Positions 9,015 through 27,383 of a stretch of DNA of 64,000 bases are shown one piece after another. The DNA is from Candidatus Poribacteria bacterium (GTDB lineage Bacteria > Poribacteria > WGA-4E > PCPOR2b), in assembly GCA_965208325.1 (NCBI GenBank), contig OZ242326.1, positions 3,296,001 through 3,360,000 of the forward strand, read 5' to 3'. The stretch's first letter is position 1. Each line of letters opens with the position of its first letter. The notes beneath the pieces are model-generated. The model was not told the DNA's origin. It did not search any database and saw only the letters and a list, made by a program, of their open reading frames with translations. The translations under genes and the position numbers were made by a program.

Positions 9015-9578
9015 CTAGCTCAGAGGATTTGCGGAAGCGGGTAGCGGAAAGAGGGTGGTAGATTCTGTGGGTTGGTTAGAGCGGAGTTGGTTTAACGCTG
9101 GGAAAATTAAGAATGTGAAATTCACGTGTGATATAGTCAAATCAGGAAAAGTAAGAGTAAATTTAGCGTTACGACAGTCGAAGGTAAATTTTCCTTTCTC
9201 CAGTAAATTTAGGCCGATTAGGCAATTGATTCCATTTAGCGATGTAAAGACATCACGCTCGCCATCTAAAACCTGAACTTTAGTGAGTCCACAATTGTAG
9301 GTTGGTTGCGAATCGGTAATTATCAGCTTGATATTAACAAGATATTGAGTGCAACCTACCAATTCGCCGCTACCTACGTAGGTTTTCGTCTCAGTATTCA
9401 GTAAGGGAGTTAAATTCAAGCGTTCTGAAATTGTTTTGCTGATTGTCGTTACATCTGCTCCCGTATCTATCCAAGCCGGCGTCTTGATAGGTGTGCCGAA
9501 TTCTTCGGTAGGTTTGCTTATTTCAATGTCAATAATGGGCCTTCTAGTGTAATCGCATCTGAACTCAAATTCAGGCAT
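9015..9578 (-). CDS. Retropepsin-like (clan AA) aspartic protease
   Basis: AWIDTGADVTTI catalytic motif and CLIGLNLL motif. ATG at 9578 overlaps the upstream gene's end (ATGCCTGA). Confidence 0.8.
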   Translation of the reverse strand: MPEFEFRCDYTRRPIIDIEISKPTEEFGTPIKTPAWIDTGADVTTISKTISERLNLTPLLNTETKTYVGSGELVGCTQYLVNIKLIITDSQPTYNCGLTKVQVLDGERDVFTSLNGINCLIGLNLLEKGKFTFDCRNAKFTLTFPDLTISHVNFTFLIFPALNQLRSNQPTESTTLFPLPASANPLS

Positions 9579-9891
9579 AGTAGATTCTGGGTTCACTTCT
9601 AATTTCTTGGATAAAAAGCGGAATATACCCGAATCGCTTATATCCAGCCTCAGCACCTGTGGCTAAATCCTCATATACATCGACGACTTCTTCGTCCTTA
9701 ATTAAAACAAACTTGCCTTCTCCATACTTTTTTATCAGATGCTCTTTATTGGCTTCAAAAAACGCCAATTCCGTAAGAAATGTACCTTCCTTCGTTAGAT
9801 AAGGAAAAACATAATACTCGTGCATTCTCAAAGGGTCATCTTCTGGAGGCACATGTTCGTTTTCACGCACTTTAATTCTCGCCATCGTCAT
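9571..9891 (-). CDS. Small DUF5678-like protein
   Basis: C-terminal FEANKEHLIKKYGEGKFVLIKDEEVV...GYKRFG..P.FI pattern; GGAGG RBS. This family is usually paired with aspartic proteases. Confidence 0.6.
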   Translation of the reverse strand: MTMARIKVRENEHVPPEDDPLRMHEYYVFPYLTKEGTFLTELAFFEANKEHLIKKYGEGKFVLIKDEEVVDVYEDLATGAEAGYKRFGYIPLFIQEIRSEPRIYYA

Positions 9892-10366
9892 TTGCCTCCA
9901 TTTTCTTTCGATAGTAATCCCGAATTAATTCATCTTTGATGACAGAATCCCCTTTTCTGTTTGCAATATCCCAAGGAGTACCTGACAAATGAGTAAGGCT
10001 CGATAGGTCTATTGCATCATGACCTTTATACTCGTCCCATACCGCATCTAAGAATTGCTCAATATCGGCGAATCCTTCTCTTTTGGATGGCTCTTTTTGA
10101 GTAGTATGCAAGGAAGCAGGTTCTTGTGCATACGTTTGAATAGGATTATGCCCGTAGTGTTTGAACTCATGATATAGCGTAGGAATGACAGGTCCGTATT
10201 TCCACGCTTCAACTCTATCTTCAAATAGAGGTTTATCTGTATACGCTAAATGCCAGCCGTGTGCAATATAAACCAATTTCAGAAGTTTCATTGGAGTTAG
10301 GGGGTCTTTGTCAGCTTTTCCCTTATCAATGAAGTGATTGGCAATTGCCTTTACAGAATACATCAT
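9872..10366 (-). CDS. Panacea (DUF4065/SocA-like) antitoxin-domain protein
   Basis: AIANHFI, LTPMKLLKLVYIAHG, EAWKYGPV, LSSLTH..GTPW motifs. Confidence 0.9.
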   Translation of the reverse strand: MMYSVKAIANHFIDKGKADKDPLTPMKLLKLVYIAHGWHLAYTDKPLFEDRVEAWKYGPVIPTLYHEFKHYGHNPIQTYAQEPASLHTTQKEPSKREGFADIEQFLDAVWDEYKGHDAIDLSSLTHLSGTPWDIANRKGDSVIKDELIRDYYRKKMEANDDGEN

Positions 10367-10601
10367 GGATTCCTTTCGTGTTGTCGGTGTACATTGACTA
10401 TAAAGAGGCGCTATGACTTATCGCAACGCCTTTCGCTTGCGAATATACCATCGAGTACGCCGTAATGTCAAGGAAATGTCAAGTAAAACGAACACAGCAC
10501 TTGCAGTCTTTGCATTACCAAAACCGGGCAAAATCACCAAAATTGTTCCAAAAAAATCCAATGTAAGTTCATGGTGGCAACAAAAATCAAGGGGTCTACT
10601 A

Positions 10602-11240
10602 TGTTTACTTACCCCCAATGTTTAGACAGTTATGCTTGTTGATTAAGATGCAATTGCTAGGCAATCCGGCTATGCTTCAACACCTAGGTTTTTTGAAAAT
10701 ACACCTCGTGAGGTGTTCTAGTGTTGAGCGACGTATGAAGCCGCTCCTCATTATAAAACTTGAAATTGTTGTTCAAGCCACACCAAGCCGTGTGAACCGA
10801 GTCATAAGCGTGTAGATAGACATGTTCATACTTGACGGTCCGCCAGAGACGCTCAATGAAAATGTTGTCAAACACGCTGCCGGTACCAGTCCAACTGATG
10901 CGTATGTTAGCCGATTCGTAAAGGCATCTGACGTGAACTGCGCGCCCTGGTCGCTATTGAATATCAAAGGCCGAGAAGAACTCAATGCCCGTTCCAGTGC
11001 CGATAGACAAAAGTAATCGTCTAGTGTATTTGACAATTCCCATGATAACACATATCGAGAGTACCAATCTATAATCGCCACTAGATACACAAAGCCGGTG
11101 TTCAAGCGGATATAGGTGATATCAGTTGCCCATACCTGGTCCGGTCGAGTGATAATTGAATCCTTCAGTAAATAAGCATACTTTTTCGACAGCCTGCCGT
11201 GCTTGGAGAGATTCGGCGTGGGAAAGATTGGGCTGATGTC
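10602..11240 (-). mobile_element. IS3-family transposase remnant (OrfB 3' half, frameshifted) with right end
   Basis: RPDQVWATDITYI, FNSDQGAQFTS, then DNIFIERLWRTVKYE...YNEERLHTSL in another frame. IS3-like end CTGTCTAAACATTGGGGGTAAGTAAACA terminates at ~10602. The 5' half is missing. Confidence 0.9.
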
Positions 11241-11251
11241 TCGCTGCCGTT

Positions 11252-11364
11252 CTTTCAGTCCGCTTTTCATCGCGGTAGAGGTTGTTACGCGTGTAATGAG
11301 TAATACGTAATGCGTAATTTATTAGAGCTTTGAGTGCGCTTTTGATTGCAGTATAGCTAGTGTC
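11252..11364 (-). CRISPR. Detached mini-array: degenerate repeat, 39-nt spacer, perfect repeat
   Basis: Perfect 37-nt repeat at 11252-11288, spacer at 11289-11327, degenerate copy at 11328-11364 (27/37 identity by manual alignment). About 90-100 nt of non-repeat sequence separates it from the main array. Confidence 0.8.
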
Positions 11365-11466
11365 CGGCGGTGGAAAACTTTCTTGCCCACGAAGTCACAT
11401 TACTCTGAATGTGTAGTGATGTAGTAGAAACAAGACTATCGCCTTCGCTATCCGCTCAGTTGATCC

Positions 11467-14400
11467 CTTTTCATCGCGGTAGAGGTTGTTACACTGCCAA
11501 GGTGCAATACCCAACTCTCATTGCGGGCTTTCAGTCCGCTTTTCATCGCGGTAGAGGTTGTTACAGAACAGGAGACGGAACGGCGCAAACTCCGCAGAAT
11601 CGCCTTTCAGTCCGCTTTCCATCGCGGTAGAGGTTGTTACCTGTACCCAGAGAATGACGATGAGATCTACGTGCACTTTCAGTCCGCTTTTCATCGCGGT
11701 AGAGGTTGTTACTCAATCCCACGCTTGACTTTCTTCTCGATACTCTTAAACTTTCAGTCCGCTTTTCATCGCGGTAGAGGTTGTTACTTATCAATTCGAT
11801 TTGAATCTGCGGCGGTTTTCAACTTTCAGTCCGCTTTTCATCGCGGTAGAGGTTGTTACGCAAGCCAAGACAGAATAATCTAATAGCAAAGTATGAACTT
11901 TCAGTCCGCTTTTCATCGCGGTAGAGGTTGTTACTCCCTTTATCTCGGTGTGTCTGTAGACACTAAATTGCTTTCAGTCCGCTTTTCATCGCGGTAGAGG
12001 TTGTTACCCAATTCTGCGTTGGTTATCAGTTTTCTAAATAATCTTTCAGTCCGCTTTTCATCGCGGTAGAGGTTGTTACGTCAACACGAGGGCAGGCACA
12101 ACGCACCACCAGAACTTTCAGTCCGCTTTTCATCGCGGTAGAGGTTGTTACTCTTGTTGATAGCATCCTGTTCTAACCCGTAGGCGACTTTCAGTCCGCT
12201 TTTCATCGCGGTAGAGGTTGTTACTGACTTGAATGAACTGGACATGTATCCGGTTCTGCATTTCTTCTTTCAGTCCGCTTTTCATCGCGGTAGAGGTTGT
12301 TACAGACAGTAGTTGGGCGTTTGGGCAACTAGATAGCGTCGCTTTCAGTCCGCTTTTCATCGCGGTAGAGGTTGTTACTAGTAGCTGCAGATAGGGTAGG
12401 GAGACGATGGATACTTTCAGTCCGCTTTTCATCGCGGTAGAGGTTGTTACCCGCGAGATTTGGGAGTTCCGCGCGGAATAGGTGCGCTTTCAGTCCGCTT
12501 TTCATCGCGGTAGAGGTTGTTACTAATTGATAACTCAATCTTCAAGCCAGATATGCCAAGCTTTCAGTCCGCTTTTCATCGCGGTAGAGGTTGTTACCAA
12601 TTCGACAGGCTGCGAATGAAACATCAGATCCATCTTTCAGTCCGCTTTTCATCGCGGTAGAGGTTGTTACGAAGAATCTCATGCCGTGAACCCTGAAGAT
12701 ATTTTGCTTTCAGTCCGCTTTTCATCGCGGTAGAGGTTGTTACTTGAATTGCCGCTTGCAGAAAACGCATTTGTGTTTTTGCTTTCAGTCCGCTTTTCAT
12801 CGCGGTAGAGGTTGTTACATGCAATGTTTCACTTGTGACAAGTCGGGCGCGGGTCTTTCAGTCCGCTTTTCATCGCGGTAGAGGTTGTTACCTAATACTT
12901 GCGAACGGGCGAAACACACGGCGCAATGCTTTCAGTCCGCTTTTCATCGCGGTAGAGGTTGTTACTCCAATTTTAGTGTCAGTTTTAGGGATTCTTTATT
13001 CTCTTTCAGTCCGCTTTTCATCGCGGTAGAGGTTGTTACTCTTTCGTCTGTACGCCTCCCGTTAAAGTGAAAAACTTTCAGTCCGCTTTTCATCGCGGTA
13101 GAGGTTGTTACCCGATAGGGGCGGTGGCACAGGCAACTTGATTGAACTTTCAGTCCGCTTTTCATCGCGGTAGAGGTTGTTACAATTCGCACGGCTTGAT
13201 TGAAGTATTTAAGAAGTTGGACTTTCAGTCCGCTTTTCATCGCGGTAGAGGTTGTTACAAAGTGAGCACCTTTGGATTCAGCTCTTTCTATTATCTTTCA
13301 GTCCGCTTTTCATCGCGGTAGAGGTTGTTACTTCTAACGTCAACCCGGCGGCGAACACAATTCGATCTTTCAGTCCGCTTTTCATCGCGGTAGAGGTTGT
13401 TACCACTAATCAGGTCGCTGAATATGAAAGCCTTTACGATCTTTCAGTCCGCTTTTCATCGCGGTAGAGGTTGTTACTTGCTAGAGCTGTACGAGAACGA
13501 GCCCATCGAAGAGTCTTTCAGTCCGCTTTTCATCGCGGTAGAGGTTGTTACTATGAAGAACCCTAGTATCTCTATTACCACCTACGGTACTTTCAGTCCG
13601 CTTTTCATCGCGGTAGAGGTTGTTACCCAAGTAGAAAAGAGTTCAAGGCTAGACTTACGAATCTTTCAGTCCGCTTTTCATCGCGGTAGAGGTTGTTACT
13701 CGCGTTGCCCTGTGGCGTGTCAATACGCTTCAGTGGTATCTTTCAGTCCGCTTTTCATCGCGGTAGAGGTTGTTACCTTTGTCTTGAACCGTCGCCCCCG
13801 CCATGCCTGATTCGCTTTCAGTCCGCTTTTCATCGCGGTAGAGGTTGTTACGCAAACCTTTGTGACTTTGCAAAGGTTAAGAAAACGCTTTCAGTCCGCT
13901 TTTCATCGCGGTAGAGGTTGTTACCAGAAATGTTGACATTCATACGGGCGACACGATAAGCTTTCAGTCCGCTTTTCATCGCGGTAGAGGTTGTTACTCA
14001 AGATCTTCCGTGCTGTTAATGACGTTGTTTTTACTTTCAGTCCGCTTTTCATCGCGGTAGAGGTTGTTACCTACTTTCCCCCTAGCCGGCACAAGACATG
14101 CTTCACCTTTCAGTCCGCTTTTCATCGCGGTAGAGGTTGTTACACATCACCTATCGGTGTACGGGAATGTCCTAGAGTCTTTCAGTCCGCTTTTCATCGC
14201 GGTAGAGGTTGTTACACGGATTCACGGGCGAAAAATTTTCACTGCCTTGACTTTCAGTCCGCTTTTCATCGCGGTAGAGGTTGTTACTTTCTAACACGGA
14301 CCCGAAAAGTAACACGATTCGATCTTTCAGTCCGCTTTTCATCGCGGTAGAGGTTGTTACCACGGTTCATGCGCGGAGTCGAGCCGGTCGTTGCGCGTCT

Positions 14401-14506
14401 TTCAGTCCGCTTTTCATCGCGGTAGAGGTTGTTACTTGGACGCCGCCTCAAACACGTCGAGATCGAGCACTTTCAGTCCGCTTTTCATCGCGGTAGAGGT
14501 TGTTAC
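11467..14506 (-). CRISPR. CRISPR array: 41 full 37-nt repeats plus one truncated trailer repeat
   Basis: Plus-strand repeat CTTTCAGTCCGCTTTTCATCGCGGTAGAGGTTGTTAC (minus strand GTAACAACCTCTACCGCGATGAAAAGCGGACTGAAAG, CCGC/GCGG stem). Counted from 11528 to 14506; spacers ~34-42 nt; one variant repeat at 11604. The 3' TGAAAG end and left-side degeneration indicate minus-strand transcription. Confidence 0.99.
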
Positions 14507-14899
14507 CGACCTCGTGTAGTAAAGTAAAGATTGGACAAACACAGCAGCAATCCACGTTTGTAAGTTTTATCTCCTATCATGACGGATACACCTTGTTATG
14601 TCGATGGTTTAGTGTTAATGTGCGGCGATTTGAGTTACCGTCTATATTGAAGGCATTCTCGCTCGAATTTTCGCAAATCTACTGATTTCTAACGAATACC
14701 GGCATAACTCGTTTTACGCCGAGCTAGTCCGTCGAAAATCGGGCTAAAGTTGACCTAAATCCGCAATTCTAATCTCGTTTACGTGCGGCAACATTCCCAA
14801 AAAAAGCCTGTCAACCCGCGTTGTGTCTGGATTTTACCCAATAATAAATCTTTCGCAAATCGCCCCAATTATTCCGCAGAAAAACGATTTGCGAAACGC
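14507..14899 (-). promoter_or_regulatory. CRISPR leader
   Basis: Non-coding region between the cas4 stop and the non-degenerate end of the array. Confidence 0.75.
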
Positions 14900-15472
14900 T
14901 CACAATACATCGGCGCAGAACCTGCGAAATTCACACTCAACGCATTTTCCGCGCTGCGGCGTCGGCGAAGGCATTCGCTCGTGTGATAACATAGCCCGTA
15001 TCTGAGCGATACTGTCGAGGGTTTTTCGCCGCAACGCGTCTGAAATCGGTACAGCTGTGATTCGCTTTGTAGGAAACCGATAGATGAAACCTTGGGATAC
15101 TGTTTGGCCGAGGCATTCCTCCACCATCATGGCATACGCAGTCAACTGATATTTGGCATTGAGATTCAGCCTCTGCCTTGTGGACTTAAACTCAACTGGA
15201 AATGCGCCTTCATTTGCCTCAATGAGCAGGTCAAGCACGCCAGTCAATCCGAGAGCGTCCGCGTTCAGTGTGACATGAAACTTGCGGCTTCCCGATTCCA
15301 ACCCATACCGAGAGAGAAGGCGGCGCCGCTCCAAGACACTGAGCACCTCGTGTTTAACCGCGCCGTGCTGCATCGGATGCGTGACAGGGCGGTGGACCGG
15401 CGTGAAGTAGGTGTGATAGACCACCCGCGGGCAGTAGAAGTATTGTTTGATGTCACTCACACGTATTTTCAT
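14900..15472 (-). CDS. cas4: CRISPR-associated exonuclease Cas4
   Basis: YCPR, GVLDLL, PVEFK, QLTAYA, C-terminal CVECEFRRFC Fe-S cysteines. Start trimmed to MKIRVSD (AAGGA upstream). Confidence 0.95.
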   Translation of the reverse strand: MKIRVSDIKQYFYCPRVVYHTYFTPVHRPVTHPMQHGAVKHEVLSVLERRRLLSRYGLESGSRKFHVTLNADALGLTGVLDLLIEANEGAFPVEFKSTRQRLNLNAKYQLTAYAMMVEECLGQTVSQGFIYRFPTKRITAVPISDALRRKTLDSIAQIRAMLSHERMPSPTPQRGKCVECEFRRFCADVL

Positions 15473-15511
15473 TCTTGGTTCCTTATAAAATCGCGGTGCA
15501 AAAGAATAGGA

Positions 15512-15543
15512 GAAACCGAGTTTTGGGGAAAAAACTCGGTTTT
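15512..15543. repeat. REP-like palindrome (family A) between cas2 and cas4
   Basis: GAAACCGAGTTTT-ggggaa-AAAACTCGGTTT. Confidence 0.85.
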
Positions 15544-15557
15544 TGCCGTTAGAATAT

Positions 15558-15809
15558 TCATTCTCCGAACTCTTCAATGACGGTTCGTTTGTCGTAATCT
15601 TTTGCACATACACTCATGACTTCGATTACTCCCTCTGCTTTGCCGAGTTGAACTGCCAGTTTTTCCTCCAATGCGCGCCGCCGTGTCGTGTTAATGTCGC
15701 CGCGGAACGCGCTGTATTGGATTCGGTGTAAGCCGTAATCGAGGCAAACATCGGCGATTTTTTTGCGGATACGGTCATTGACGATGTCGTAGATGACGTA
15801 GGTTTGCAT
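15558..15809 (-). CDS. cas2: CRISPR-associated endonuclease Cas2
   Basis: YVIYDI...R.KIADVCLDYGLHRIQYSAF. Confidence 0.95.
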   Translation of the reverse strand: MQTYVIYDIVNDRIRKKIADVCLDYGLHRIQYSAFRGDINTTRRRALEEKLAVQLGKAEGVIEVMSVCAKDYDKRTVIEEFGE

Positions 15810-15818
15810 GGGGAAGAC

Positions 15819-15940
15819 TAATGAGTAATGCGTAATGAGTAATGAGTAATGCGTAATGCGTAATGAGTAATGCGTAATGAGTAATGCGTAATGAGTAATG
15901 CGTAATGAGTAATGCGTAATGAGTAATACGTAATGCGTAA
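15819..15940. repeat. Heptamer tandem repeat TAATG(A/C)G, 17 units
   Basis: Read directly: 122 nt = 17x7+3, with one TAATACG variant. Confidence 0.95.
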
Positions 15941-15953
15941 AAGTGCGATGCGA

Positions 15954-15986
15954 GAAACAGAGTTTTGAAGAAAAAAACTCGGTTTC
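15954..15986. repeat. REP-like palindrome (family A) between cas1 and cas2
   Basis: GAAACAGAGTTTTGAAGAAAAAAACTCGGTTTC. Confidence 0.8.
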
Positions 15987-15999
15987 AAGAATTTGCCCA

Positions 16000-17100
16000 T
16001 TACCATGTGGCGATGAAGGGTTGATAGTCCCGTTCGCGGCGTAGGAACATTGCCAGGTGTCGGGCTTGGACTTGAATGATGTTGCAGAGTTTTTGTTCCT
16101 TACGCTCGAACCGCTCGGTTTCCTGTAATCGCCCTAACACACGGCCGGCAATTGCGCGGCGGGTTTCCCGGCTTAGTCGGCGCTGCGAGGGCGTATCTGC
16201 CGCCTCATTGGATGCTGAGGATTGGTGAGCGGCTTTTGCGGCTTCGCTGTCTGGCTCTTCCCACTCGACGTTGAATCTTTTGTTAATCATGGCGAACACA
16301 ACCCTATCCACGACGGACTGGCGGAACTCTTCGATAAAGTCTAACACTAACGACGGTTTGCCGGGACGGTCGACATGCAGGAACCCCGCAAACGGTTCGA
16401 GTCCGGCGAGTGACAGCGCGCTCCAGACTTGCGAGTAGAGCATCCCGTAGCCGTAGTTTAGCAGTGCGTTGACATCATCGACTGCGCCGCGATGGTTTCG
16501 GGTGGTGAAGCGTCCGGCGGGCAGTAGGCGTTGGACGCATTCCCAGTAGAGCGCGCCGGCGCGTCCTTCGAGATTAAGGAGCGTCGATCGCATCGCATCA
16601 ACCGGTGTGGTGGTATCGGCGGGCGTTTCCAGAGCGCTCAACTCCGACAGAATCGCCTCAATTTTTGCAATGCGTTCCATGAGTTCACCAAATTTTTTTG
16701 GTGCTTGTTTCTTGCGGTATTTTCCGAAATATCGGACGAGGTTTACTTGATTCTTCAGCTTGCCCGCTGCGAACCGTTTGGCAATCTCCAATCCGCGCTC
16801 GTCGTGGTAGGCGGCGAGTTGTTCGCGTCTTGAGATTACGGTGGCGGTAAGGGATGGGCTGTTGAGTTTCGCGTACGGTTTTCCGTTGAAGCTGAGGAAC
16901 GAGATTTCGATGCCGCGTTCGGTACACGCTTCAATCAGGTCTGAAGAGACACTGACCCCGCGCGAGGCGATAACAATCTGGTCGAGATCCATAAGAGCGT
17001 GTTCCTCTTTACCACGCTCCTTGTCTCGGTATCGGACACTGACACGCTCGGAGTGTTTGCCGAGATAGGTGCCGTAATCGGAGATAGTGAGTTGGTTCAT
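16000..17100 (-). CDS. cas1: CRISPR-associated integrase Cas1
   Basis: LEGRAGALYW, NALLNYGYGMLY, GFLHVDRPGKPSLVLDFIEEFR catalytic motifs. Confidence 0.97.
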   Translation of the reverse strand: MNQLTISDYGTYLGKHSERVSVRYRDKERGKEEHALMDLDQIVIASRGVSVSSDLIEACTERGIEISFLSFNGKPYAKLNSPSLTATVISRREQLAAYHDERGLEIAKRFAAGKLKNQVNLVRYFGKYRKKQAPKKFGELMERIAKIEAILSELSALETPADTTTPVDAMRSTLLNLEGRAGALYWECVQRLLPAGRFTTRNHRGAVDDVNALLNYGYGMLYSQVWSALSLAGLEPFAGFLHVDRPGKPSLVLDFIEEFRQSVVDRVVFAMINKRFNVEWEEPDSEAAKAAHQSSASNEAADTPSQRRLSRETRRAIAGRVLGRLQETERFERKEQKLCNIIQVQARHLAMFLRRERDYQPFIATW

Positions 17101-17278
17101 TTTCTCTTTCCTTTCAATCTAATTGCATAGAATAATCTCGAAGTGTTTTCTTAATCCTTGCGCGAATGCCGAAATTCAGGTACACTTTAAAGACGATTGA
17201 CCAATCGTTGAACCCCGTGCAACTGCCCTGCAACACTACGCCATTTTCGACACACGATTGATGCAAAGGACCCAATTA

Positions 17279-17560
17279 ATGTGCCAACAACCCAATACTT
17301 ACAGATTTCTTGAAGCCCGTCCGAATCATTGGCGCCGGCAACTCTGGATAAAGGGTAGAAACATGACCGTTTGGCACCTTATCGCCGCCATGCGCACCGA
17401 ACGCGAGACTCTTGAGGGTACTGCCAAAAACTTTGAGTTGCCGCTTGAAGCGGTCCTTGAAGCAACACACTACTATGTCCTCCACAAAGACATTGTCGAA
17501 GCCGACACGAAAGAGGAGAAGCGCATTCTCACCGAAGAATTCGGTTATCACTTGGATTAA
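17279..17560 (+). CDS. DUF433-like antitoxin
   Basis: WRRQLWIKGRNMTVWHL...AKNFELPLEAVLEATHYY HTH pattern; ends 2 nt before the PIN-like gene. Confidence 0.7.
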   Translation: MCQQPNTYRFLEARPNHWRRQLWIKGRNMTVWHLIAAMRTERETLEGTAKNFELPLEAVLEATHYYVLHKDIVEADTKEEKRILTEEFGYHLD

Positions 17561-17562
17561 CC

Positions 17563-17931
17563 ATGTCTTTCACAATCTACCTTGAAGATTGTTCTGATGA
17601 TAACCGTCTAATCCATTCCCTCACGCTGGCAGGACACTCCGTTATATCACCCCGATCGACAAATACAAAAGACTTGGAGGATGCCGACCACCTCCGCTAC
17701 GCCGCAGCTCATGGTTACTGTGTCCTTACCCATAACCCCGCAGATTTTCGCCGATTACACCGTGATTGGCAGGATCGAGGATATACGCATTCGGGAATTT
17801 TTATTATCTACCGTGACAACAACATTCGCAAGGATATGAACAATATTGACATCGTCAGGTCCATCGCAAACCTGTCGGCTTCAAACTTACCTATCGCCAA
17901 CGAAATCCACATCCTCAATCAGTGGCGATAG
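17563..17931 (+). CDS. DUF5615 PIN-like (VapC45-type) toxin
   Basis: IYLEDCSD, L..AGH.V, D.DHL.YA, VLTHNPADF, HSGI motifs. Confidence 0.8.
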   Translation: MSFTIYLEDCSDDNRLIHSLTLAGHSVISPRSTNTKDLEDADHLRYAAAHGYCVLTHNPADFRRLHRDWQDRGYTHSGIFIIYRDNNIRKDMNNIDIVRSIANLSASNLPIANEIHILNQWR

Positions 17932-17956
17932 TAGCTTCAAAGCAGGCACGAGGCGC

Positions 17957-18255
17957 ATGTTAATTGCGCTAGCCCGACCAAGAAGGGCAAACCGATCAAC
18001 CGACTGAATAAAGAGGGCGATAGAAATTCCGCAGCGAACGAGGCCGAAATTAACGCGGCGGCAGTATCGGACCCCGACGCCCAGCCGACAGATAAGGCTT
18101 TCTGGAGTGATGCCGAGGTTGTAATTCCCGAACCTAAACACGCTATTTCTCTGCGCGTCGACAGCGATGTGCTCAAGTGGTTCAAATCTCAGGGCAAAGG
18201 TTACCAGACCCGTATGAACGCCGTGTTGCGGGCGTATATGGAAACACATCAATAG
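17957..18255 (+). pseudogene. BrnA-family antitoxin with disrupted 5' end and no BrnT partner
   Basis: Hand translation: EAEINAAAVSDPDAQPTDKAFWSDAEVVIPEPKHAISLRVDSDVLKWFKSQGKGYQTRMNAVLRAYMETHQ*. The upstream ATG (17957) is out of frame and stops at ...STD*. Confidence 0.75.
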
Positions 18256-18321
18256 GAAGCGCCCAGCCGAGTTTGAAACATAAACCGTGCCGCTTAGGCG
18301 CAATTTTTACGCGTCCACACT

Positions 18322-18354
18322 GAAACCGAGTTTTTTCTTTCAAAACTCGGTTTC
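18322..18354. repeat. REP-like palindrome (family A), opposite orientation
   Basis: GAAACCGAGTTTTTTCTTTCAAAACTCGGTTTC. Confidence 0.85.
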
Positions 18355-18371
18355 TTTCGACACGTACAATT

Positions 18372-18476
18372 TATGACGAATTCGGAGCTAGGTTCGCGAC
18401 GTTTCGCGAAACGCCGACAAACTATCTGTGGGCGTACGAGGTGCGAGTTAAGGACCCAGACGGTCACAACCTGTGA
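18372..18476 (+). pseudogene. VOC/glyoxalase-family C-terminal fragment
   Basis: YDEFGARFATFRETPTNYLWAYEVRVKDPDGHNL*; contains the DPDG motif; no start codon. Confidence 0.5.
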
Positions 18477-18639
18477 TTCAGGTTTTAACCGAAAAATGAT
18501 GAACGGTGCAGCGAGTCGCATCTTTGAGATGATGACTTGTTTGCGATCGGTTTCTTACGCTGAACGTTCCGTATTTTTCCCAAATTTTTATTAGACATTA
18601 GTATGTTCAACTAGCATACTTAAACTGATGCAGGCTTAC

Positions 18640-18739
18640 AGAAACCGAGTTTTTTCCGGAGTAGAAACGCGAAATTGACGAAAATCGGGGCAATTTACCT
18701 TTTTTGATTTAGCATTCGTTAACCAAAAACTCGGTTTCT
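18640..18739. repeat. 100-bp element with family A arms as terminal inverted repeats (REPIN/MITE-like)
   Basis: AGAAACCGAGTTTTT (18640-18654) ... AAAAACTCGGTTTCT (18725-18739), 20 nt past the cas3 stop. Confidence 0.75.
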
Positions 18740-18759
18740 CTGCATACGTAGGGATTGCA

Positions 18760-21120
18760 TTAGTCAAACGTCAATCCCACCTCCGAGTCGTATGTGGCTT
18801 CAATTCGATGCGGTTCTTTCCGTTCCCTTGGAAGGATTCTATCGACACTTTTTAGGGCGTGATATCTCCTCCAGCTTATCGGGACTAACAGTTCTCCTGC
18901 GCGAATTGGCTCTTCTTCGCTCAGGGTTTTGTATTCATTATAGAGAGAAGCCGGTAGGACCTCAAGTCCATCAAACGCCCTGTAAAATGCCTCTTCAAGT
19001 CCCTCGTCGGCTGCAAAAGGACGCATTGGGCGTATGCACATTCTATCAAAGTTTGCGGCGGCGTTTTCGTATTTCTCCCGCCAGCGAATCTCGATCTCTC
19101 CGCTATAGATTTCATCTAACCAAGCGCCGATTGCGCCCTCATTAATTGGACGTTCGTTTTCGCGCTCAAGAATTGACAGGGTACGTTTCACCAATTCGGG
19201 ATCATAAATCTTTTGTCCATCGTGGGGTTGACGAAAGACGTGAACAGGCGCGAGGCCTTTCTGTAGTATACGGCGGTTGATACGACCAAAACGTTGTATT
19301 AGTGCCTCCAACGGTGCCGGTTCTGTGTAAATCGTATCCAAATCAATGTCCAGACTGACCTCGACCGCTTGTGTGGCAACGAGGACAATAGGTTGACGTT
19401 TCTCGCTCGTTGCTCCCGTCGCATCCCGAATGAGTTTTTCTTTTGCAGAGCGGTCTCGCATATTGAAACGACCATGTAAAAGTTCCGTTCGGATATTCAC
19501 CGCGTTCAACTGGTCACGAATCTGATTGTATGCCTCTTGTGCCTGATTAACAAGGTTGCACACGACCAACACCGATTTCCCTGCCTTCGCGTCATTAATC
19601 ACCTTTGTTAGATTGGAATCGTCTAATAACTCACCGTCGTGTAGTATGAGTTGATGGCGCTCGAATACTTGAAATAGATCGGGATTGGCTTCAATCGTAG
19701 TTGGCGAGTTTAGAGCTTTAGATAACCACTCTTGAATAAGCGTTGGGAAGGTCGCTGACATAACAAAGAAACGCGCATTGAAATTTACCCTAAGATATTC
19801 GATGGTCTTGAAGATCATCGCCAATCGCGTGACTTCGTAGGCGTGAATCTCGTCAAATATAAACGCCGCGTTATGATAATCGGTAAGCAACGCCTCGTAA
19901 CCCTTGAGGCGGTACATCCCTTTAAGCATTTGATACGGACTAAACACACGGACCGGCGGATAATTAAGCCGTGATAGATTGCGCGCCCATGTTGCGGTAC
20001 GAGCTGCTGTTTTTGTGCCATAACCTTTTTCTAACAGAAGACGGTAAAGCGCGAGGAGACTGCGTCCATGCTGTAAACCAACATATTCCTGTTTTGGAGA
20101 GTTTTTTTCTAAGCGACTTTGCATTGCGTTCATGCTGGCTTGATAGGGGAGTGTATAAAAAAGTCGTGGTAAGCTTCCAATAATTGATGACTGGTGTACG
20201 GCCCAGAACAGAGCGGCTTCAGTTTTCCCGCTACCGGTTGGTGCTACCAGTAGGGCTGAACCATCAACTTGTCCGGCTTGCGACTGATGTCTATGGAGGT
20301 TTTCTGGCAATAATTTATTCCTTGCTAAAATTGTGTCGATATCAAGTTGAACAGGCGGTGGTATTGGTCCAGTGTGTGCGGAGGCACTATGGTCCGCATT
20401 GATGATATAACCGCGAACGGTAATACCTAATACAACTGCATGGGTTACGTATCCATCTTCTAGATCTTCGTTGAACCTACAGTAATCTTCTAACCAGTAT
20501 TGGATTCTCTCAATACCGTGTTGTTGAACGGATTCGATTGCAATGTGCTGCGCTTGCAACGTTGGCATTGAGATGCCAAAACCACTTAATCCAAGTTCAT
20601 CCCGCCACGGGATACCGCATTTTGACAACCAACACCACAATCCACGCAAGATTGTCTCAGATAAAGAAATGTGTTGTGGATACGGGTATTTAGGAAAAAG
20701 ATAACTCTCTTGAATTTCCTTGAAATCTCGATGATGCGAGACAATACTGGCAACAAGCCACTGCTGCTCTTCCGTTGAAAGGTCGTCGGTCACCCAATCC
20801 ACAAATGCAAGCGAAAATACTTCGTGGCGATGTGACCATTTTTTCCCACCAGGACGCAGTTGGGTTTGAAAGCCTGGAACTGCCTTGCCAAAATCGTGAA
20901 GGAAGGCAGACCAGAAAAGGATGTGCCATAAGCGTGGCATATTGAGTTGGGTAGGAAGGTTAGGGCGTATTTGGATAAATTCTGCCAATCGTGATAACAC
21001 ATACCATGTGTGTTGAGCTAACGTTTCTGGATGACCGCCTTCACCCAATTCCGCGCTTTTTGCCCACACATTGTTTAACCAACCCGGATATGGGACGTTT
21101 TCAATTGAAGGTTGCATCAT
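18760..21120 (-). CDS. cas3: Cas3 HD nuclease-helicase
   Basis: HDFGK (HD), APTGSGKT, DEIH, SAT, QRFGRINR. Start trimmed to MMQPS (GGAGGT RBS; ATG at 21120 or 21117). Confidence 0.97.
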   Translation of the reverse strand: MMQPSIENVPYPGWLNNVWAKSAELGEGGHPETLAQHTWYVLSRLAEFIQIRPNLPTQLNMPRLWHILFWSAFLHDFGKAVPGFQTQLRPGGKKWSHRHEVFSLAFVDWVTDDLSTEEQQWLVASIVSHHRDFKEIQESYLFPKYPYPQHISLSETILRGLWCWLSKCGIPWRDELGLSGFGISMPTLQAQHIAIESVQQHGIERIQYWLEDYCRFNEDLEDGYVTHAVVLGITVRGYIINADHSASAHTGPIPPPVQLDIDTILARNKLLPENLHRHQSQAGQVDGSALLVAPTGSGKTEAALFWAVHQSSIIGSLPRLFYTLPYQASMNAMQSRLEKNSPKQEYVGLQHGRSLLALYRLLLEKGYGTKTAARTATWARNLSRLNYPPVRVFSPYQMLKGMYRLKGYEALLTDYHNAAFIFDEIHAYEVTRLAMIFKTIEYLRVNFNARFFVMSATFPTLIQEWLSKALNSPTTIEANPDLFQVFERHQLILHDGELLDDSNLTKVINDAKAGKSVLVVCNLVNQAQEAYNQIRDQLNAVNIRTELLHGRFNMRDRSAKEKLIRDATGATSEKRQPIVLVATQAVEVSLDIDLDTIYTEPAPLEALIQRFGRINRRILQKGLAPVHVFRQPHDGQKIYDPELVKRTLSILERENERPINEGAIGAWLDEIYSGEIEIRWREKYENAAANFDRMCIRPMRPFAADEGLEEAFYRAFDGLEVLPASLYNEYKTLSEEEPIRAGELLVPISWRRYHALKSVDRILPRERKEPHRIEATYDSEVGLTFD

Positions 21121-21826
21121 TACCTCCCACAAAGCTATGAAAAGCCAATCCGAGATAGTTGCCTTGATATTCAGGTGTTGATGGGTCGATCCAATATTTG
21201 CCCTTCTCATTTGAAAGGGAAACTCGGTCGGTGAGTACCGTGTACTGCGAAAAGGTTGGATGGCGGTTTTGACTGTAATCCAAATAGCGAGGCATAAGAA
21301 CTGATACACCGCGCCCAATTCGGGGTCCCATCTCATGCGGCATAATCGTGTGTTCAAAGTAGGCAGCCTCGTTCTGCTGCAATTCAACAACGTTGATTGC
21401 TGTGTAGGTGAACAGGTCTTGCGATCTGCCCAACGTAACTGCATAGCGTGGACTTCGGAACGCCGCTTCCCACTCTGGGCGGTTGATATAGAGCGTGAGA
21501 CGAGGTTGAAAGAGCAATTCCCTTTCAAAGGGATTTACATTGCCCTCAAGTACATTTGGGATTTGAGTCCCCGGCAGCTTGCTACGACTGGAGTTAGGCG
21601 GTGCCAATACAATGATATGCTCAAGATCCCGGACATGTCCTTGATGGGTGAAATGGTAAGCAAATTGAACTCCATTTGAATCGAACCAATCCCCCAATGC
21701 GCTACAGATATGCCCATAAATGGTTGCGGGTGGCGGCATCTGAAAGCTGGGGTGAATTTGTAGCATAAAGTGAGGATAGCGGAAGGAAGTGGTAAGTCCT
21801 TCCGCAACGATTTTGAGGACTTTCAT
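21101..21826 (-). CDS. cas5: Cas5, type I-B
   Basis: TSFRYP, PPPATIYG, LGRSQDL. Start MKVLK with GGAGGT RBS. Confidence 0.93.
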   Translation of the reverse strand: MKVLKIVAEGLTTSFRYPHFMLQIHPSFQMPPPATIYGHICSALGDWFDSNGVQFAYHFTHQGHVRDLEHIIVLAPPNSSRSKLPGTQIPNVLEGNVNPFERELLFQPRLTLYINRPEWEAAFRSPRYAVTLGRSQDLFTYTAINVVELQQNEAAYFEHTIMPHEMGPRIGRGVSVLMPRYLDYSQNRHPTFSQYTVLTDRVSLSNEKGKYWIDPSTPEYQGNYLGLAFHSFVGGNDATFN

Positions 21827-21850
21827 AGAGACCTCCCAAATCAAAGATGA

Positions 21851-21882
21851 GAAACCGAGTTTTGAAGAAAAAACTCGGTTTC
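21851..21882. repeat. REP-like palindrome (family A) between cas7 and cas5
   Basis: GAAACCGAGTTTTGAAGAAAAAACTCGGTTTC. Confidence 0.9.
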
Positions 21883-21892
21883 TTCTCCGTTG

Positions 21893-22999
21893 TCAATCCA
21901 ACCAATTGGCATTTTCCGATTTTTGCAAATCTTCGATTAAAGCCTTAAAGGCGTCTCGTGGATGATTCACTCTAATGTTTGCCTCACAATTTGCCAAACG
22001 GGAGGAATCACTTAATGCTTTCTCAAATTTATCTCGTTCATCGTCGAGATAACCCTTGGTCCAACCGACATAAACATCCGAGAGAATATCATCCTTGAAG
22101 ACCTCCAGTGCTTCAGCAAGCGCGCCATCCTTCAGTTCCGGTCCATCCCGTCGGTTTGGGCCAATGACGTGACCGAAAATGTGATTGCCACCTTTGGTCA
22201 CAGCTAGAATTGTCAGTGCCGGACTCACATCTGTATAATGCAGCGACTGCTTTGCGCCCCCTTCGAGGTGGGCTAGTCCGTCCAAAAGCGTGCTGATGCG
22301 CTGAACGCGCGCCTCGTATGGAAGTCGATAAGATTTTTCAACGTCTAGGTGCTCAAGGTTCTGAGCTTTCGCTAATTCTGTCCTCACGTTGTCAAGGTTT
22401 CGATAACCCGTTTTGTTCCGGTAGGAGAATGTCCCTGCCGCGTGTAAATCAAGTGAAAAGAGTCCTTTGAGAGTTGCGCGGTAGAATTGACTGCTGTATG
22501 GTACAGTATCTCCTTCTATGCGACTCATTGATTCCCAGTCTTCCACAATCCTAACAGGTGCGACAGACACTAGAGTGCTGACTCGGAACGGAGATACTCG
22601 AGTAATTCCCTGTTCTTTTTTCTCCTTGATGTCAAGTGGTGTTAGTTCTTGGTATTCCGGATCTTCTTGTCGTGCCTTTTGAGCTGTTGCATCATTTTTG
22701 GGGGCTCGCATGTAGCCAAAAAGATCGTCATCCCACCACTCAATTGGGTTGGCATCAGTATAAGCGATCTTCCCTTCACGATAAATGGGTGCCTCTTTCC
22801 ACTCAGAATCCATTTTTTCGAGCGTTGTGCGGTGCCAATAGCGGAATGCCTGTGCAGAGACATAAGGAAATACCTTTCCACCTGAACTAATGGCTTTTAC
22901 CGCGACCTTGTTATCGTATAATTCGTCTGGTATGTTGCCCTTGTTGTTAAGTGCTGAAGCAGGAGCATCAATTAGTAACAGACCAGTTATGAAAGACAT
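21893..22999 (-). CDS. cas7: Cas7 (Cst2/DevR type), type I-B
   Basis: DAPASALNN, PYVSAQAFRYW, DDDLFGYMRA, TRVSP, LEGGAKQSLHYTDVSP. Confidence 0.93.
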   Translation of the reverse strand: MSFITGLLLIDAPASALNNKGNIPDELYDNKVAVKAISSGGKVFPYVSAQAFRYWHRTTLEKMDSEWKEAPIYREGKIAYTDANPIEWWDDDLFGYMRAPKNDATAQKARQEDPEYQELTPLDIKEKKEQGITRVSPFRVSTLVSVAPVRIVEDWESMSRIEGDTVPYSSQFYRATLKGLFSLDLHAAGTFSYRNKTGYRNLDNVRTELAKAQNLEHLDVEKSYRLPYEARVQRISTLLDGLAHLEGGAKQSLHYTDVSPALTILAVTKGGNHIFGHVIGPNRRDGPELKDGALAEALEVFKDDILSDVYVGWTKGYLDDERDKFEKALSDSSRLANCEANIRVNHPRDAFKALIEDLQKSENANWLD

Positions 23000-23035
23000 A
23001 AACTAACCTCCTTAGATTTGTGTGAGATTGGCCTT

Positions 23036-23401
23036 TCACTCTGATTGACCATCTTCTTCTTCAATATCGATCTCTATATCTACATCGGCATTCTTATCAA
23101 ACCAACCTAGTTTGTGTAACCGTTCAATCATTCGCAGGAATACTAAATCACGTGTGAGTCGCCAATTCAGGTGGGAATCATTCTCGGCGTGTTCAAAAAC
23201 CTCAATGTAAGGATCGAACTCAATAATTGGAGAATTACCGCTCTTTATTTGGCGATAGTTTGCTCGAAGTAGAGCCGTACGAAATACACCGTAATTTATG
23301 TGCCGAAAATTCGTAAACAGATGATGATCGTCTTGCTTACTGATGTGTTCAGCCAAGCGATCTCCCATCTTACGAATTTCCTCAATCCGTCCTTCTTCCA
23401 T
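23036..23401 (-). CDS. cas11: Putative internally translated Cas11 small subunit (121 aa) nested in cas8
   Basis: In-frame ATG at 23401 (MEEGRIEEIRKMGD) preceded by GGGAGGT with 7-nt spacing. Confidence 0.65.
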   Translation of the reverse strand: MEEGRIEEIRKMGDRLAEHISKQDDHHLFTNFRHINYGVFRTALLRANYRQIKSGNSPIIEFDPYIEVFEHAENDSHLNWRLTRDLVFLRMIERLHKLGWFDKNADVDIEIDIEEEDGQSE

Positions 23402-24535
23402 ATTAAATACCTCCCTTAAAAAAGATGAAGTGATGTTCCATGAAACCAAATCCATCTCATGTGTTAATCCGTAGTCCCCCCGTGGATCACCTTTTTCGGC
23501 GCGGGCGTAACGGAACGGACGACGCAAAAAGTAGGTGCGTAAAAATCTCTTTGCTCTATCTGGTCGCAGAAACAATCCATCATATAGTCTCAGGATTTCT
23601 TCATAAAGCCAATTGCGATGCGAATGGAATGGTTTATCCTCCTTTTTCTTTCGTTTCTTCTGCGGTTCAGTTTCCCACGCCCGATTGACAATTTGGCTCC
23701 ATTGTGTACGGTAAACTGGGCTCTCCATTTCGCGCAGAAATCCGATAATTTGGAGCGGTAGGTGATAGATATCCAAACCGACCCCCTGCCCGCTGTTCGT
23801 TAGATGATATGCCGTGATTGAGAAGTGCTCCTCATCATGAGATTTCTTCCGTTGTCTAATATCTGCCCGACAAAGCGTGTTGATTAGCAGTGTACCGCGA
23901 GAGTGATGGGGTTCGTCCATTTTCTTGCTGCCCGCTTCTTGGGCAAGGGTAATGGCTCTCAGGTTTCCTTCTAGAAATGTCCGGGCAAAATGCAGCATAA
24001 GGCTCGGGTTGTCCGAATGCACCGCAAGCAATCGCCCACCAGACTTTGCACAACCAAGCGGAAACGCTTGAATAGCAAGCAGTGCTTCGCCTGAAACAGG
24101 CAAGCCAGCATCACCATAGGTGTGGAAATTGATAACATTCTCGCCGGTAAGCAATGGAATGTGTTGCCGAAAAGCACGTCCTTGTGGAAGATTCTCTTTC
24201 TCTCCAAACGCTACATCAACAGCAGGTTTGCCTGTGAAAACACACACTTCATCATCAAGTAACGGCGTATCAGCCCTGTAGTTGCGAAGCACACGCTCCG
24301 CATACCTCTTCCGTTTTTCTGGCCTCCTAATGTATGCTGGCTGCGTAAAGCCTGAGTTTGGAAAAGCAACTGTTAAAAACGACTTGAGCGGATCTTGGAC
24401 ATACTCAAGAGCGATATAGTCCGCAACATCGTCTAGATCTGCTTCGGTTAGTTCTTCAGGTCTTCGCTTGTGGGCAAAGGCGGTAATTGTCGCAATTCCC
24501 ACATCAACAAGTGGATGCCCTGTGTATTTGAGCAT
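23036..24535 (-). CDS. cas8b: Cas8b1/Cst1 large subunit
   Basis: YTGHPLVDVG, FPNS, RQHIPLL.G...NF, C-terminal W.L.RDL; lies between cas6 and cas7. Confidence 0.88.
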   Translation of the reverse strand: MLKYTGHPLVDVGIATITAFAHKRRPEELTEADLDDVADYIALEYVQDPLKSFLTVAFPNSGFTQPAYIRRPEKRKRYAERVLRNYRADTPLLDDEVCVFTGKPAVDVAFGEKENLPQGRAFRQHIPLLTGENVINFHTYGDAGLPVSGEALLAIQAFPLGCAKSGGRLLAVHSDNPSLMLHFARTFLEGNLRAITLAQEAGSKKMDEPHHSRGTLLINTLCRADIRQRKKSHDEEHFSITAYHLTNSGQGVGLDIYHLPLQIIGFLREMESPVYRTQWSQIVNRAWETEPQKKRKKKEDKPFHSHRNWLYEEILRLYDGLFLRPDRAKRFLRTYFLRRPFRYARAEKGDPRGDYGLTHEMDLVSWNITSSFLREVFNMEEGRIEEIRKMGDRLAEHISKQDDHHLFTNFRHINYGVFRTALLRANYRQIKSGNSPIIEFDPYIEVFEHAENDSHLNWRLTRDLVFLRMIERLHKLGWFDKNADVDIEIDIEEEDGQSE

Positions 24536-24536
24536 T

Positions 24537-25511
24537 CTATTTTATCCTCCCTTCTTTAGCAACGGAGTTTCTGTGGTGGATCTCATACTTCCCCAACCCA
24601 AACGTCGCATTTTTGCCGACATGCAGAAATTTGCCCAACGCTACAAACGGCAGGAATGCCTCTAAATCGCCAGTGTAGGTTACATTGCCGACTAAACCGC
24701 CGAGTTGCATCTTCTGATTCTGGCGTGAGGAGTAGCGCGTCCAGTCCTTCCATCGTAAACTGCTGTCAACGGTCTCGACCGTCTCTGCCTGTGCGATGAG
24801 TCCTTTAAAGTCGAGCTCCAGTGATTCGCCGCAGTGGAAATATGCCAACGCGGAGATGCGGCCAATCAGGCGCCGCCAGAAGAGGTGGAAAGGGAGTTTA
24901 TCGGTCAACTGTCCACCGTGCGTGATGCGCGTGGGGTTGAGCAAGTGGAAGGTCAACCGGTCGTTCGGTAGGGATGCGGTGTTGTCCCGAATCTCGCCAA
25001 AACTGAGTGTGTTATTTCGATTGTGGACCATCTGGGTTTCGCTGTCGTAGATACATTCACCGTCATCGCTCAGGACTCGGGTCAACTGGAAACGTCCGCG
25101 TCCCTTGCCGATTCCGATCTCGCCCAGCTCGCGGAAGCTGGCGATGAAATAGGGGAGGTAGTCAATGGCACGGCCGATGAGCGTGAGTTGGAACGAGAAC
25201 GATTCGCCTACCCGGTATTCGCCGCGTGTATCCAACGGATCAATGACAAACGGTCTCGGCACGTCGCCATAAGTTCGCAACTGCTGCGCCCCTTCAAACG
25301 GCGCCGTCTCAAAGATGTACGGGTATGGGCAGGCGACCTTTAGTACACAATCTCGGCAGTCGATCGGTCCTTGGGTGCAAACCATTTTTCGGAATGCATG
25401 ACCGAATCCGCCGCGGAGCGTCGAGCCAGCGTAGGGCGGCATCACAATGGGTGATCGTACGGTTAGAATTACACGGTATCGCGCGAGTCTGAAATTTTGA
25501 AGTAGATTCAT
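24537..25511 (-). CDS. cas6: Cas6 crRNA endoribonuclease (Cys-cluster type)
   Basis: GSTLRGGFG, C.....C..C.....C cluster, VPRPFVI, C-terminal G-loop HVGKNATFGLG. Confidence 0.93.
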   Translation of the reverse strand: MNLLQNFRLARYRVILTVRSPIVMPPYAGSTLRGGFGHAFRKMVCTQGPIDCRDCVLKVACPYPYIFETAPFEGAQQLRTYGDVPRPFVIDPLDTRGEYRVGESFSFQLTLIGRAIDYLPYFIASFRELGEIGIGKGRGRFQLTRVLSDDGECIYDSETQMVHNRNNTLSFGEIRDNTASLPNDRLTFHLLNPTRITHGGQLTDKLPFHLFWRRLIGRISALAYFHCGESLELDFKGLIAQAETVETVDSSLRWKDWTRYSSRQNQKMQLGGLVGNVTYTGDLEAFLPFVALGKFLHVGKNATFGLGKYEIHHRNSVAKEGRIK

Positions 25512-25532
25512 TGGTGAGCTCCAGATTTTTTT

Positions 25533-25549
25533 GTCCGCTTTTCATCGCG
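25533..25549 (-). promoter_or_regulatory. CRISPR-repeat core (17/17 nt) in the cas6 5' UTR
   Basis: GTCCGCTTTTCATCGCG equals plus-strand repeat positions 7-23, in the same orientation as the array, 21 nt from the cas6 ATG. Confidence 0.7.
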
Positions 25550-25581
25550 TGATTGGGTAGGTCTTTGAAACCGGAATCTCA

Positions 25582-25717
25582 GAAACCAAGTTTTGAAGAA
25601 AAAACTTGGTTTAAAGCTAAGTCGAGTTTTGAAGAAAAAAACTCGGTTTCAATGGCTGAAGCAACGGAGTTTTGAAGAAAAAACTTGGTTTCAAGATAGA
25701 AGAAAAAACTCGGTTTT
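25582..25717. repeat. Tandem cluster of 3 full and 1 half family A REP palindromes downstream of the RAYT
   Basis: Copies at ~25582, 25619, 25661 and 25699. The first shows a compensatory CCAAG/CTTGG change. Confidence 0.85.
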
Positions 25718-25736
25718 GACTTGGCTTCGAGGGATT

Positions 25737-26303: not shown

Positions 26304-26317
26304 TTGTAGTTTTTTAA

Positions 26318-26348
26318 GAAACCGAGTTTTGAAGAAAAAACTCGGTTT
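26318..26348. repeat. REP-like palindrome (family A) upstream of the RAYT
   Basis: GAAACCGAGTTTTGAAGAAAAAACTCGGTTT. Confidence 0.9.
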
Positions 26349-26388
26349 ATAAGGATTATATCATGCCAGAGTGCAATATATTCGCACT

Positions 26389-27360: not shown

Positions 27361-27383
27361 ACGGCGTTGTCTCCTTTCAGAAT

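Follow-up and report, generated by a model that had tools for sequence, protein, structure and literature searches.

At the trailer end of a type I-B CRISPR array in a Poribacteria-like genome, a small detached unit reads degenerate repeat, spacer, perfect repeat, and its spacer matches a tract of heptamer repeats inside the adjoining cas locus. Is this unit a guide that regulates the locus, or is it what is left of a spacer taken from the chromosome itself? An earlier note, made from the sequence alone, had put forward both possibilities. We analyzed the unit in its window (the whole 64,000-nt stretch, G000:C1:3296001-3360000, where G000 is the source genome, a 4.71-Mb single contig) and in related genomes, and conclude that it is a real feature, that it is not a cas regulator, and that it is most likely a muted self-repeat spacer.

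The array belongs to a type I-B locus of the Cas8b1/Cst1 type (14900-27360, minus strand) in which all cas frames are open, in the order WYL, REP-associated tyrosine transposase, cas6, cas8b1, cas7, cas5, cas3, cas1, cas2, cas4, leader, array. The leader (14507-14836, minus strand) shares 82% identity over 330 nt with that of G002, a genome of the same genus. Minus-strand transcription is supported by this homology and by the covarying repeat hairpin (CCGC/GCGG versus CCCC/GGGG in relatives). The main array (11493-14506, minus strand) contains 41 repeats, one with 1 mismatch, and regular spacers of 34-42 nt, the last of them at 11493-11527; in a k-mer scan of the genome, it was the sole regular CRISPR array of G000. 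The repeat core is present in 71 loci, 65 of which are labelled Candidatus Poribacteria. Past the array, a Panacea/SocA-like antitoxin, a 106-aa orphan frame, and an aspartic protease-like frame occupy 9015-10366, and a DUF5615 pair with a BrnA-like scrap lies between cas3 and cas1 (17258-18303).

In transcription order, the trailer consists of the last spacer, a 26-nt repeat piece, a 102-nt insert, the degenerate repeat, a 39-nt spacer, the perfect repeat, 23 nt, and an IS3 remnant, all on the minus strand. The repeat piece (11467-11492) is the 5′ 26 nt of a split repeat, without the 3′ hairpin arm and handle. The insert begins with a dispersed ~30-bp repeat joined to the CRISPR-repeat loop (11436-11466; 303 copies at ≥23/32 in G000) and continues with an interior and an 8-nt remnant of the element's right end (11365-11435, the remnant at 11366-11373). 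The degenerate full-length repeat (11328-11364) matches the canonical one at 27/37 positions, and the closing repeat (11252-11288) is a perfect 37-nt sequence match. Between them, spacer nt 11-35 (11293-11317 within 11289-11327) consist of 3.5 units of the heptamer TAAT(G/A)(A/C)G, and nt 1-10, the seed, are an A/T-rich flank outside the heptamer repeat. The array is truncated after the unit by the leftover 23 nt (11229-11251) and an IS3-family transposase fragment (10603-11228) with 93% identity to G000:3740859-3741494. The coordinates and the repeat-spacer-repeat layout given in the earlier note were exact on re-measurement; it overlooked both how a dispersed element splits the upstream repeat and how an IS3 fragment ends the array. 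Metagenome runs containing parts of the unit are mostly sponge metagenomes.

The degenerate repeat is beyond chance: besides the 41 perfect copies, 9 ungapped windows on both strands of the 4.7-Mb genome reach ≥27/37, all of them repeat-like. We rejected the idea that it is a mere decayed element end or heptamer piece, as its 5′ 16 nt fit the canonical repeat at 10/16 positions in fixed register (binomial p=0.0016); one of its 12-mers recurs in a tract of the CCACT heptamer family. Its stem pairs read C.C, U.G, G-C, and C-G against four G-C pairs in the canonical repeat, so that by predicted pairing three of four are possible and the bottom pair is lost. Folding energies of the degenerate repeats are −1.6 and −2.0 kcal/mol, versus −7.0 kcal/mol for the canonical one. 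A CreT-like toxin in the 91-bp insert was also rejected, as no ribosome-binding motif was seen by eye and the lone start codon is directly followed by a stop and is missing in G002. An Rfam search of the unit returned a sub-threshold match alone (19.9 bits, cut-off 100).

The unit stands apart from the array because the dispersed ~30-bp element split the preceding repeat. In the loci collected, this element splits CRISPR repeats at one loop position at 19 distinct sites (in L003, L006, L007, L009, L029, L077-L079, and the window pair). In relatives, it is often paired, its right end then rebuilding the 3′ half of the repeat, and pairs with the repeat loop at both sides occur in arrays of G001, G029, and G035; the window insert aligns with the array inserts of G001 and G035. 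In G000, 8 nt of the right end remain, with the degenerate repeat directly after them. The idea that the element is a MITE was not upheld in G000: there were 14 inward pairs among the 303 G000 copies, 12 of the 14 without a flanking direct repeat of ≥5 nt. Like the Tn7-like family described in the accessible text of PMC11837452, the element inserts repeatedly at one repeat position in several arrays; unlike that family as presented there, it is a ~30-bp dispersed repeat that brackets 60-150 bp, with no transposase found inside, and is mostly unpaired in G000. Trailer repeats elsewhere bracket larger inserts of 0.5-1.5 kb (L021:7775-9099, L023:12744-15061, L024:13132-13701, L068, and L103), some of which are gene-cassette-like, with open frames or ribosome-binding sites.

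The sequence match that first drew attention to the spacer was confirmed: 11293-11317 equals 15916-15940 at 25/25 positions, within a 17-unit tract between cas1 and cas2 (15819-15940). Real as it is, the match is not confined to the cas locus, a correction to the earlier note: the same 25-mer, extended to 26 nt, recurs at G000:4397621. This longest exact match lies 1.1 Mb away and flanks a four-helix-bundle gene, the genome's only PF05635 match, which is bracketed by four heptamer tracts (G000:4397573-4398480). G000 contains 27 tracts with at least three units of the TAAT(G/A)(A/C)G family, the cas1-cas2 tract being one of them; a heptamer tract also lies 74-164 nt upstream of the WYL gene (27434-27524). 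Heptamer tracts are thus abundant genome-wide, the very observation that the earlier note had named as one that would refute its proposal. Nor is the TAATACG unit rare, as had been supposed: it makes up 19 of the 134 units in the 27 tracts, the spacer's own 3 units included. Three family units can form 27 different 25-mers, of which the cas1-cas2 tract contains 8 and other parts of the genome contain 17, so that a 25/25 local match is expected about three times in ten for any three-unit spacer of this family.

A guide acting on the cas locus would have to engage one of its two tracts, at 15819-15940 or 27434-27524, in the manner of CreR or CreA. The layout of the unit, the 25/25 match within the locus, and the position of one tract upstream of the WYL gene speak for such repression, as does the TCG triplet upstream of the 15916 register, which fits the YYD PAM of the related Thermotoga maritima I-B1 system, a pattern satisfied by 12 of 64 triplets. 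However, the match comprises nt 11-35, the wrong end of the spacer, and the seed agrees with the 15916 register at 1/6 positions (nt 1-5 and 7), positions at which, according to the available text of PMC13199841, mismatches abolish binding in T. maritima I-B1. The caveat of the earlier note that the seed matches neither local tract holds, and the tract between cas1 and cas2 lies away from the effector promoter. Within 10300-28000, no site besides the spacer itself reached ≥9/10 seed matches (scored over nt 1-5 and 7-11), and none of the 17 sites with 8/10 lies upstream of the cas6, WYL, or Panacea gene. Of 195 tract registers with a heptamer core of ≥20/25, 193 match the seed at 2-5 of 10 positions, one at 6, and one at 7. 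Two chance 10/10 seeds lie far off in G000 with no further match, and no other site in G000 shares the first 11 nt or more of the spacer. The whole-genome search with all 39 nt that had been proposed as a check returned no full-length or seed-matched target in G000; the spacer matches the chromosome exactly over 25-26 nt at two places and at best 29/39 ungapped.

The scaffold of the unit was found in one of 40 relatives, G002. There, leader and split first repeat come before the shared insert, which is identical at 97/102 positions, the shared degenerate repeat, which agrees at 33/37, and a perfect closing repeat, and the spacer is a 38-nt sequence of the CCACT-type heptamer family, unrelated to that of G000. 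Both families, TAATG-type and CCACT-type, occur in both genomes. The bottom stem pair is lost in both degenerate repeats, and the 8-nt handle is kept at 7/8 positions in G000 and 8/8 in G002 (5/8 in G035), versus 20/29 and 19/29 for the rest of the degenerate repeat in G000 and G002. The G002 locus has lost its effector genes, a cut cas1 being fused to the end of cas4; the only Cas7 match in G002 comes from a separate I-B locus, which has a TAATG-family tract and whose repeat, of 30 nt, is a different one. As the guide of G002 is of the CCACT family and its other cas-locus tract of the TAATG family, guide and cas-locus tract do not covary. The G002-type spacer also appeared on unit-spanning contigs in three of four metagenome runs examined, one of which may be the source of G002; two of these contigs differ from G002 at spacer (seed) position 5, as read from difference tables. 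The metagenome contigs yielded no further orthologues of the degenerate repeat.

These observations allow a comparison with known regulatory mini-arrays. As in the type I-B and I-E CreA/CreR units described in the accessible part of Liu et al. (10.1101/2023.03.10.532045), the trailer unit has two repeat-like sequences (27/37 and 37/37) around one spacer of normal length, a degenerate first repeat that keeps its handle, and a type I-B context. In contrast to what is described there, no cas or cargo promoter offers it a seed-matched target with a flanking PAM; it lies on the trailer side and not between cas genes; a consensus scan of 11150-11620 gave 0 promoter-like sites of its own; and its spacer is not conserved, the scaffold being present in a single relative with an unrelated spacer. 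In the available text of the same source, CreA repression is lost on single seed changes. The CreA/CreR-type guide of the earlier note thus fails on seed, target, promoter, and spacer conservation, and repression of this cas locus by the unit is largely refuted; we consider it very improbable.

A broader function is also conceivable, in which the unit would yield a crRNA-like RNA, bound by Cascade or cut by Cas6, directed against dispersed heptamers as a class, with an exchangeable guide in a kept scaffold. Through a scaffold with swappable heptamer guides, Poribacteria would then police or mark selfish short repeats, along with the cassettes flanked by these repeats (four-helix-bundle genes, for instance), by means of a small RNA of CRISPR origin, which a solo Cas6 might cut without Cascade. 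Several observations agree with such a guide. The degenerate first repeat with kept handle and the perfect second repeat correspond to the CreA/CreR layout in the accessible text of 10.1101/2023.03.10.532045, and the scaffold is common to G000, G002, and contigs in three of four runs. Both guides are heptamer-derived, against a background of heptamer content among 38-mers of 0.09% in the genome and 0.38% in intergenic sequence. The G002 spacer has self sites with 6/7 seed letters and YYD-type PAMs (best 29/38), and a solo cas6 paralogue (68% to the cas6 of the locus) is kept away from arrays in both genomes (G000:761138-762109 and G002:805670). The retention of three of four stem pairs and of most of the handle, the CreR pattern, is the main reason against dismissing function.

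Intergenic identity between G000 and G002 averages 89.5% (37 segments, 0.77-0.99), and both the element with its interior (97/102) and the degenerate repeat (33/37, no better than the mean) fall inside this range, so the scaffold is not unusually conserved. The closing repeat, 37/37 in both genomes, is the exception (p ~0.017 at intergenic divergence); it speaks for such a guide, and would point to selection, homogenisation, or recent arrival. Against a heptamer-directed guide, moreover, the G000 guide is unable to seed on any tract, the bottom stem pair is gone in both alleles, seed position 5 of the G002-type allele differs from run to run, cognate Cascade is missing in G002 and G035 (the other I-B locus of G002 having a different repeat), and the unit is present in 3 of 159 genomes. 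We therefore regard a guide of this kind as improbable, and the policing or marking role built on it as equally so.

The G035 case was found in a pattern scan of 159 genomes, which used two patterns, one orientation each of the two heptamer families; 112 of these genomes represent the family without a match to the trailer unit in the relative and phylum searches. Heptamer tracts directly ahead of the start of an intact repeat turned up at three sites only, in G000, G002, and G035, all of them behind a split repeat. G035 has the same layout of split repeat, damaged repeat, and heptamer spacer, and as it belongs to another family and carries a different insert, it counts as an independent case. 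Its spacer is 49 nt long with a linker like that of genomic modules, and in its locus, a cas6 scrap adjoins the cas3 end and the query used gave no Cas7 match. At a second locus of G003, where only WYL and cas2 scraps remain, a heptamer tract comes right after the leader and first repeat; the upstream repeat is perfect there, and no clear closing repeat is present.

We then asked how such spacers are distributed. The survey covered 793 distinct flanked spacers from the window, the G000 orphan array described below, and the collected loci (7 cut by locus ends were dropped), and a heptamer spacer was one with a period-7 score ≥14, a class defined after the window was seen. None of 716 interior spacers but 3 of 70 end-of-run spacers (window, G002, and G000 orphan array) were of this kind (Fisher p=7e-4; p=0.008 without the window unit). 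Testing more broadly, with 15-mers that are multi-copy in G000, brought in no spacer other than that of the window; the REP-like end spacers of L078 and L081 failed this test. The next repeat follows within 420 nt at 8 of the 19 split repeats. Among these, the upstream 3′ halves match at 17, 17, and 13 of 21 positions in the three heptamer-spacer cases and at 20-21 of 21 in the five with ordinary spacers (damaged versus intact, p=0.018; 0.07 with related cases merged, as G000 and G002 share a slot). With few, post hoc, and partly related cases, this is a small recurring pattern.

The reading that we favor, and hold to be probable though by no means assured, is that the unit is a trailer relic, and that spacers derived from chromosomal repeats persist only where they are silenced. 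As the present arrangement of the trailer shows, the ~30-bp element split the near-trailer repeat and detached the last units, and the IS3 fragment later cut the array behind them. The spacer would have been taken up by Cas1-Cas2-Cas4, its source being a short heptamer tract in the chromosome of this bacterium or of a Poribacteria relative. Such a spacer could drive interference or priming and would be harmful or useless, because it resembles dozens of self sites. After the split, the anatomy suggests, the repeat before the spacer would serve that spacer alone and so could decay without cost to any other crRNA, whether under selection or by relaxation: its Cas6 hairpin is damaged in sequence, and the downstream repeat, which would serve the next spacer, has stayed intact. 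Heptamer spacers would thus persist only behind damaged repeats or where effector genes have been deleted, a pattern seen in the cases above, whose cause may be silencing. The trailer unit would have no target in G000 and regulate nothing.

Silencing is supported by the 27/37 upstream repeat in G000 and, in the loci of G002 and G035, by the deletion of effector genes; Cascade is intact in G000, and there the seed finds no self match. The self-acquired spacer silenced by repeat decay, the second suggestion of the earlier note, is accordingly the best supported and has gained comparative evidence, although the overall match to the chromosome is partial at 25-26 of 39 nt. Several findings count against it. 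No full-length protospacer was present among the candidates in 176 phylum genomes (5 scored in each), viral contigs contained no exact 19-nt match to the spacer, and a phage search with the array gave no match, so capture by Cas1-Cas2 would have to be read from spacer size and borders, which fit. For comparison, none of the regular spacers had a protospacer either (792 spacers against G000 and the collected loci). The handle is better preserved than the rest of the degenerate repeat, as in CreR, the G003 case has a perfect upstream repeat, and cas loss is common in these genomes anyway, including at solo repeats without heptamers. Furthermore, different heptamer families behind one inherited degenerate repeat in G000 and G002 mean that every reading needs a second event, array deletion or conversion.

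Alternatively, the spacer never came from Cas1-Cas2, and a dead slot between two hairpins was instead overwritten by an invading heptamer module, through the process by which heptamer and REP modules are moved and swapped in the intergenic DNA of Poribacteria. We consider this kind of repeat turnover unlikely. Heptamer turnover as such needs no CRISPR, as G002 and G000 have different families at one of 19 two-sided orthologous intergenic tracts (out of 23 in the 22 G002 regions chosen), a switch seen at L141:1414 versus G000:2367236. The splitting element is found inside REP hairpins elsewhere, its copies adjoining REP hairpin arms in G000, a REP transposase gene lies within the cas locus, the 49-nt spacer of G035 has a module-like linker, and the end spacers of L078 and L081 are filled by REP-like sequence. 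However, the intergenic switch changed the length (117 versus 167 nt), whereas spacer size was kept in the trailer slot (39 and 38 nt) with exact repeat borders. In addition, only 3 of the 27 tracts lie within 300 bp of the element, and damage confined to the upstream repeat is not predicted by overwriting.

According to the accessible text of a review (PMC6990116) that cites Stern et al. 2010, self-targeting spacers are escaped by mutation of the adjacent repeats or by loss of cas genes. The trailer unit resembles the neutralised spacers presented there in its chromosome-like spacer, its mutated adjacent repeat, and its sister loci without effector genes. It differs from them, as far as that text goes, in that the match is to a multi-copy heptamer family and covers only 25-26 of 39 nt, that a repeat-splitting element helps the silencing, and that one slot has different heptamer families in two species. 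In the available part of Shmakov et al. (10.1101/2023.03.03.530964), unconserved and targetless mini-arrays near arrays are degraded repeats. Intergenic heptamer sets are described in the accessible text of PMC4679880 (TAACTGA, in Beggiatoaceae, Cyanobacteria, and Bacteroidetes), where no link to CRISPR is made; they share with the Poribacteria tracts short intergenic 7-mers, variable copy number, and frequent proximity to gene starts, but the units given there differ. A literature search, with supplements and most subscription papers outside its scope, found nothing on heptamer-derived spacers in Poribacteria. The swapped heptamer family of G002 in the same scaffold and the independent G035 layout are new.

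If the silencing of a self-repeat spacer is the true explanation, the unit preserves a natural trace of autoimmunity directed at multi-copy repeats of the chromosome, and it shows an escape route, in which an insertion, by splitting a repeat, uncouples it from the upstream spacer and lets one harmful spacer be muted alone. If instead a heptamer-directed guide is made, the intergenic heptamer repeats of bacteria, which are unexplained, would for the first time be tied functionally to CRISPR RNAs. On the silencing reading, the case is also a caution for screens of mini-arrays that units of degenerate repeat, spacer, and repeat with a long local match can be relics.

Other repeat remnants were noted in the course of the analysis. 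An orphan array built on the repeat of the main array, in decay and with no cas genes, lies at G000:799166-799470. One of its spacers recurs in three near-copies, after which come a heptamer-like spacer of 37 nt, in the orientation opposite to that of the window, and a repeat stub joined to the ~30-bp element. REP-like or heptamer-like end or solo spacers were found at L081:1021, L078:1264, L092:1021, and L028:7614; in L081 and L028, the downstream flank is identical and the repeat module ahead of it different. A solo repeat that keeps hairpin and handle (29/37; G000:3617669-3617705, also in L072) stands at the junction of two genes. From inspection by eye, we take these genes to encode NADH dehydrogenase subunits A and B, and the repeat could be a Cas6 cut site in their mRNA. 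A seed scan around solo repeats (25 loci, ±1 kb) gave no convincing local target. L045 and L061 (~1001) share a conserved two-repeat unit whose second repeat overlaps the start of a 359-codon frame. L075 and L090 (~1001-1100) have in common a mini-array of repeat, similar 30-nt spacer, and degenerate repeat, upstream of a cas10d-like gene (below the cut-off); no target was found within 1 kb, and its conserved spacer makes it a candidate regulatory mini-array. Finally, the window itself has a half repeat with the Cas6 hairpin (25/37, 17 nt exact) at 25527-25563, after REP hairpins and ~15 nt upstream of the cas6 start, which might be a Cas6 site in the cas6 leader or the distal repeat of a lost mini-array, and which would be a better CreR-type lead than the trailer unit.
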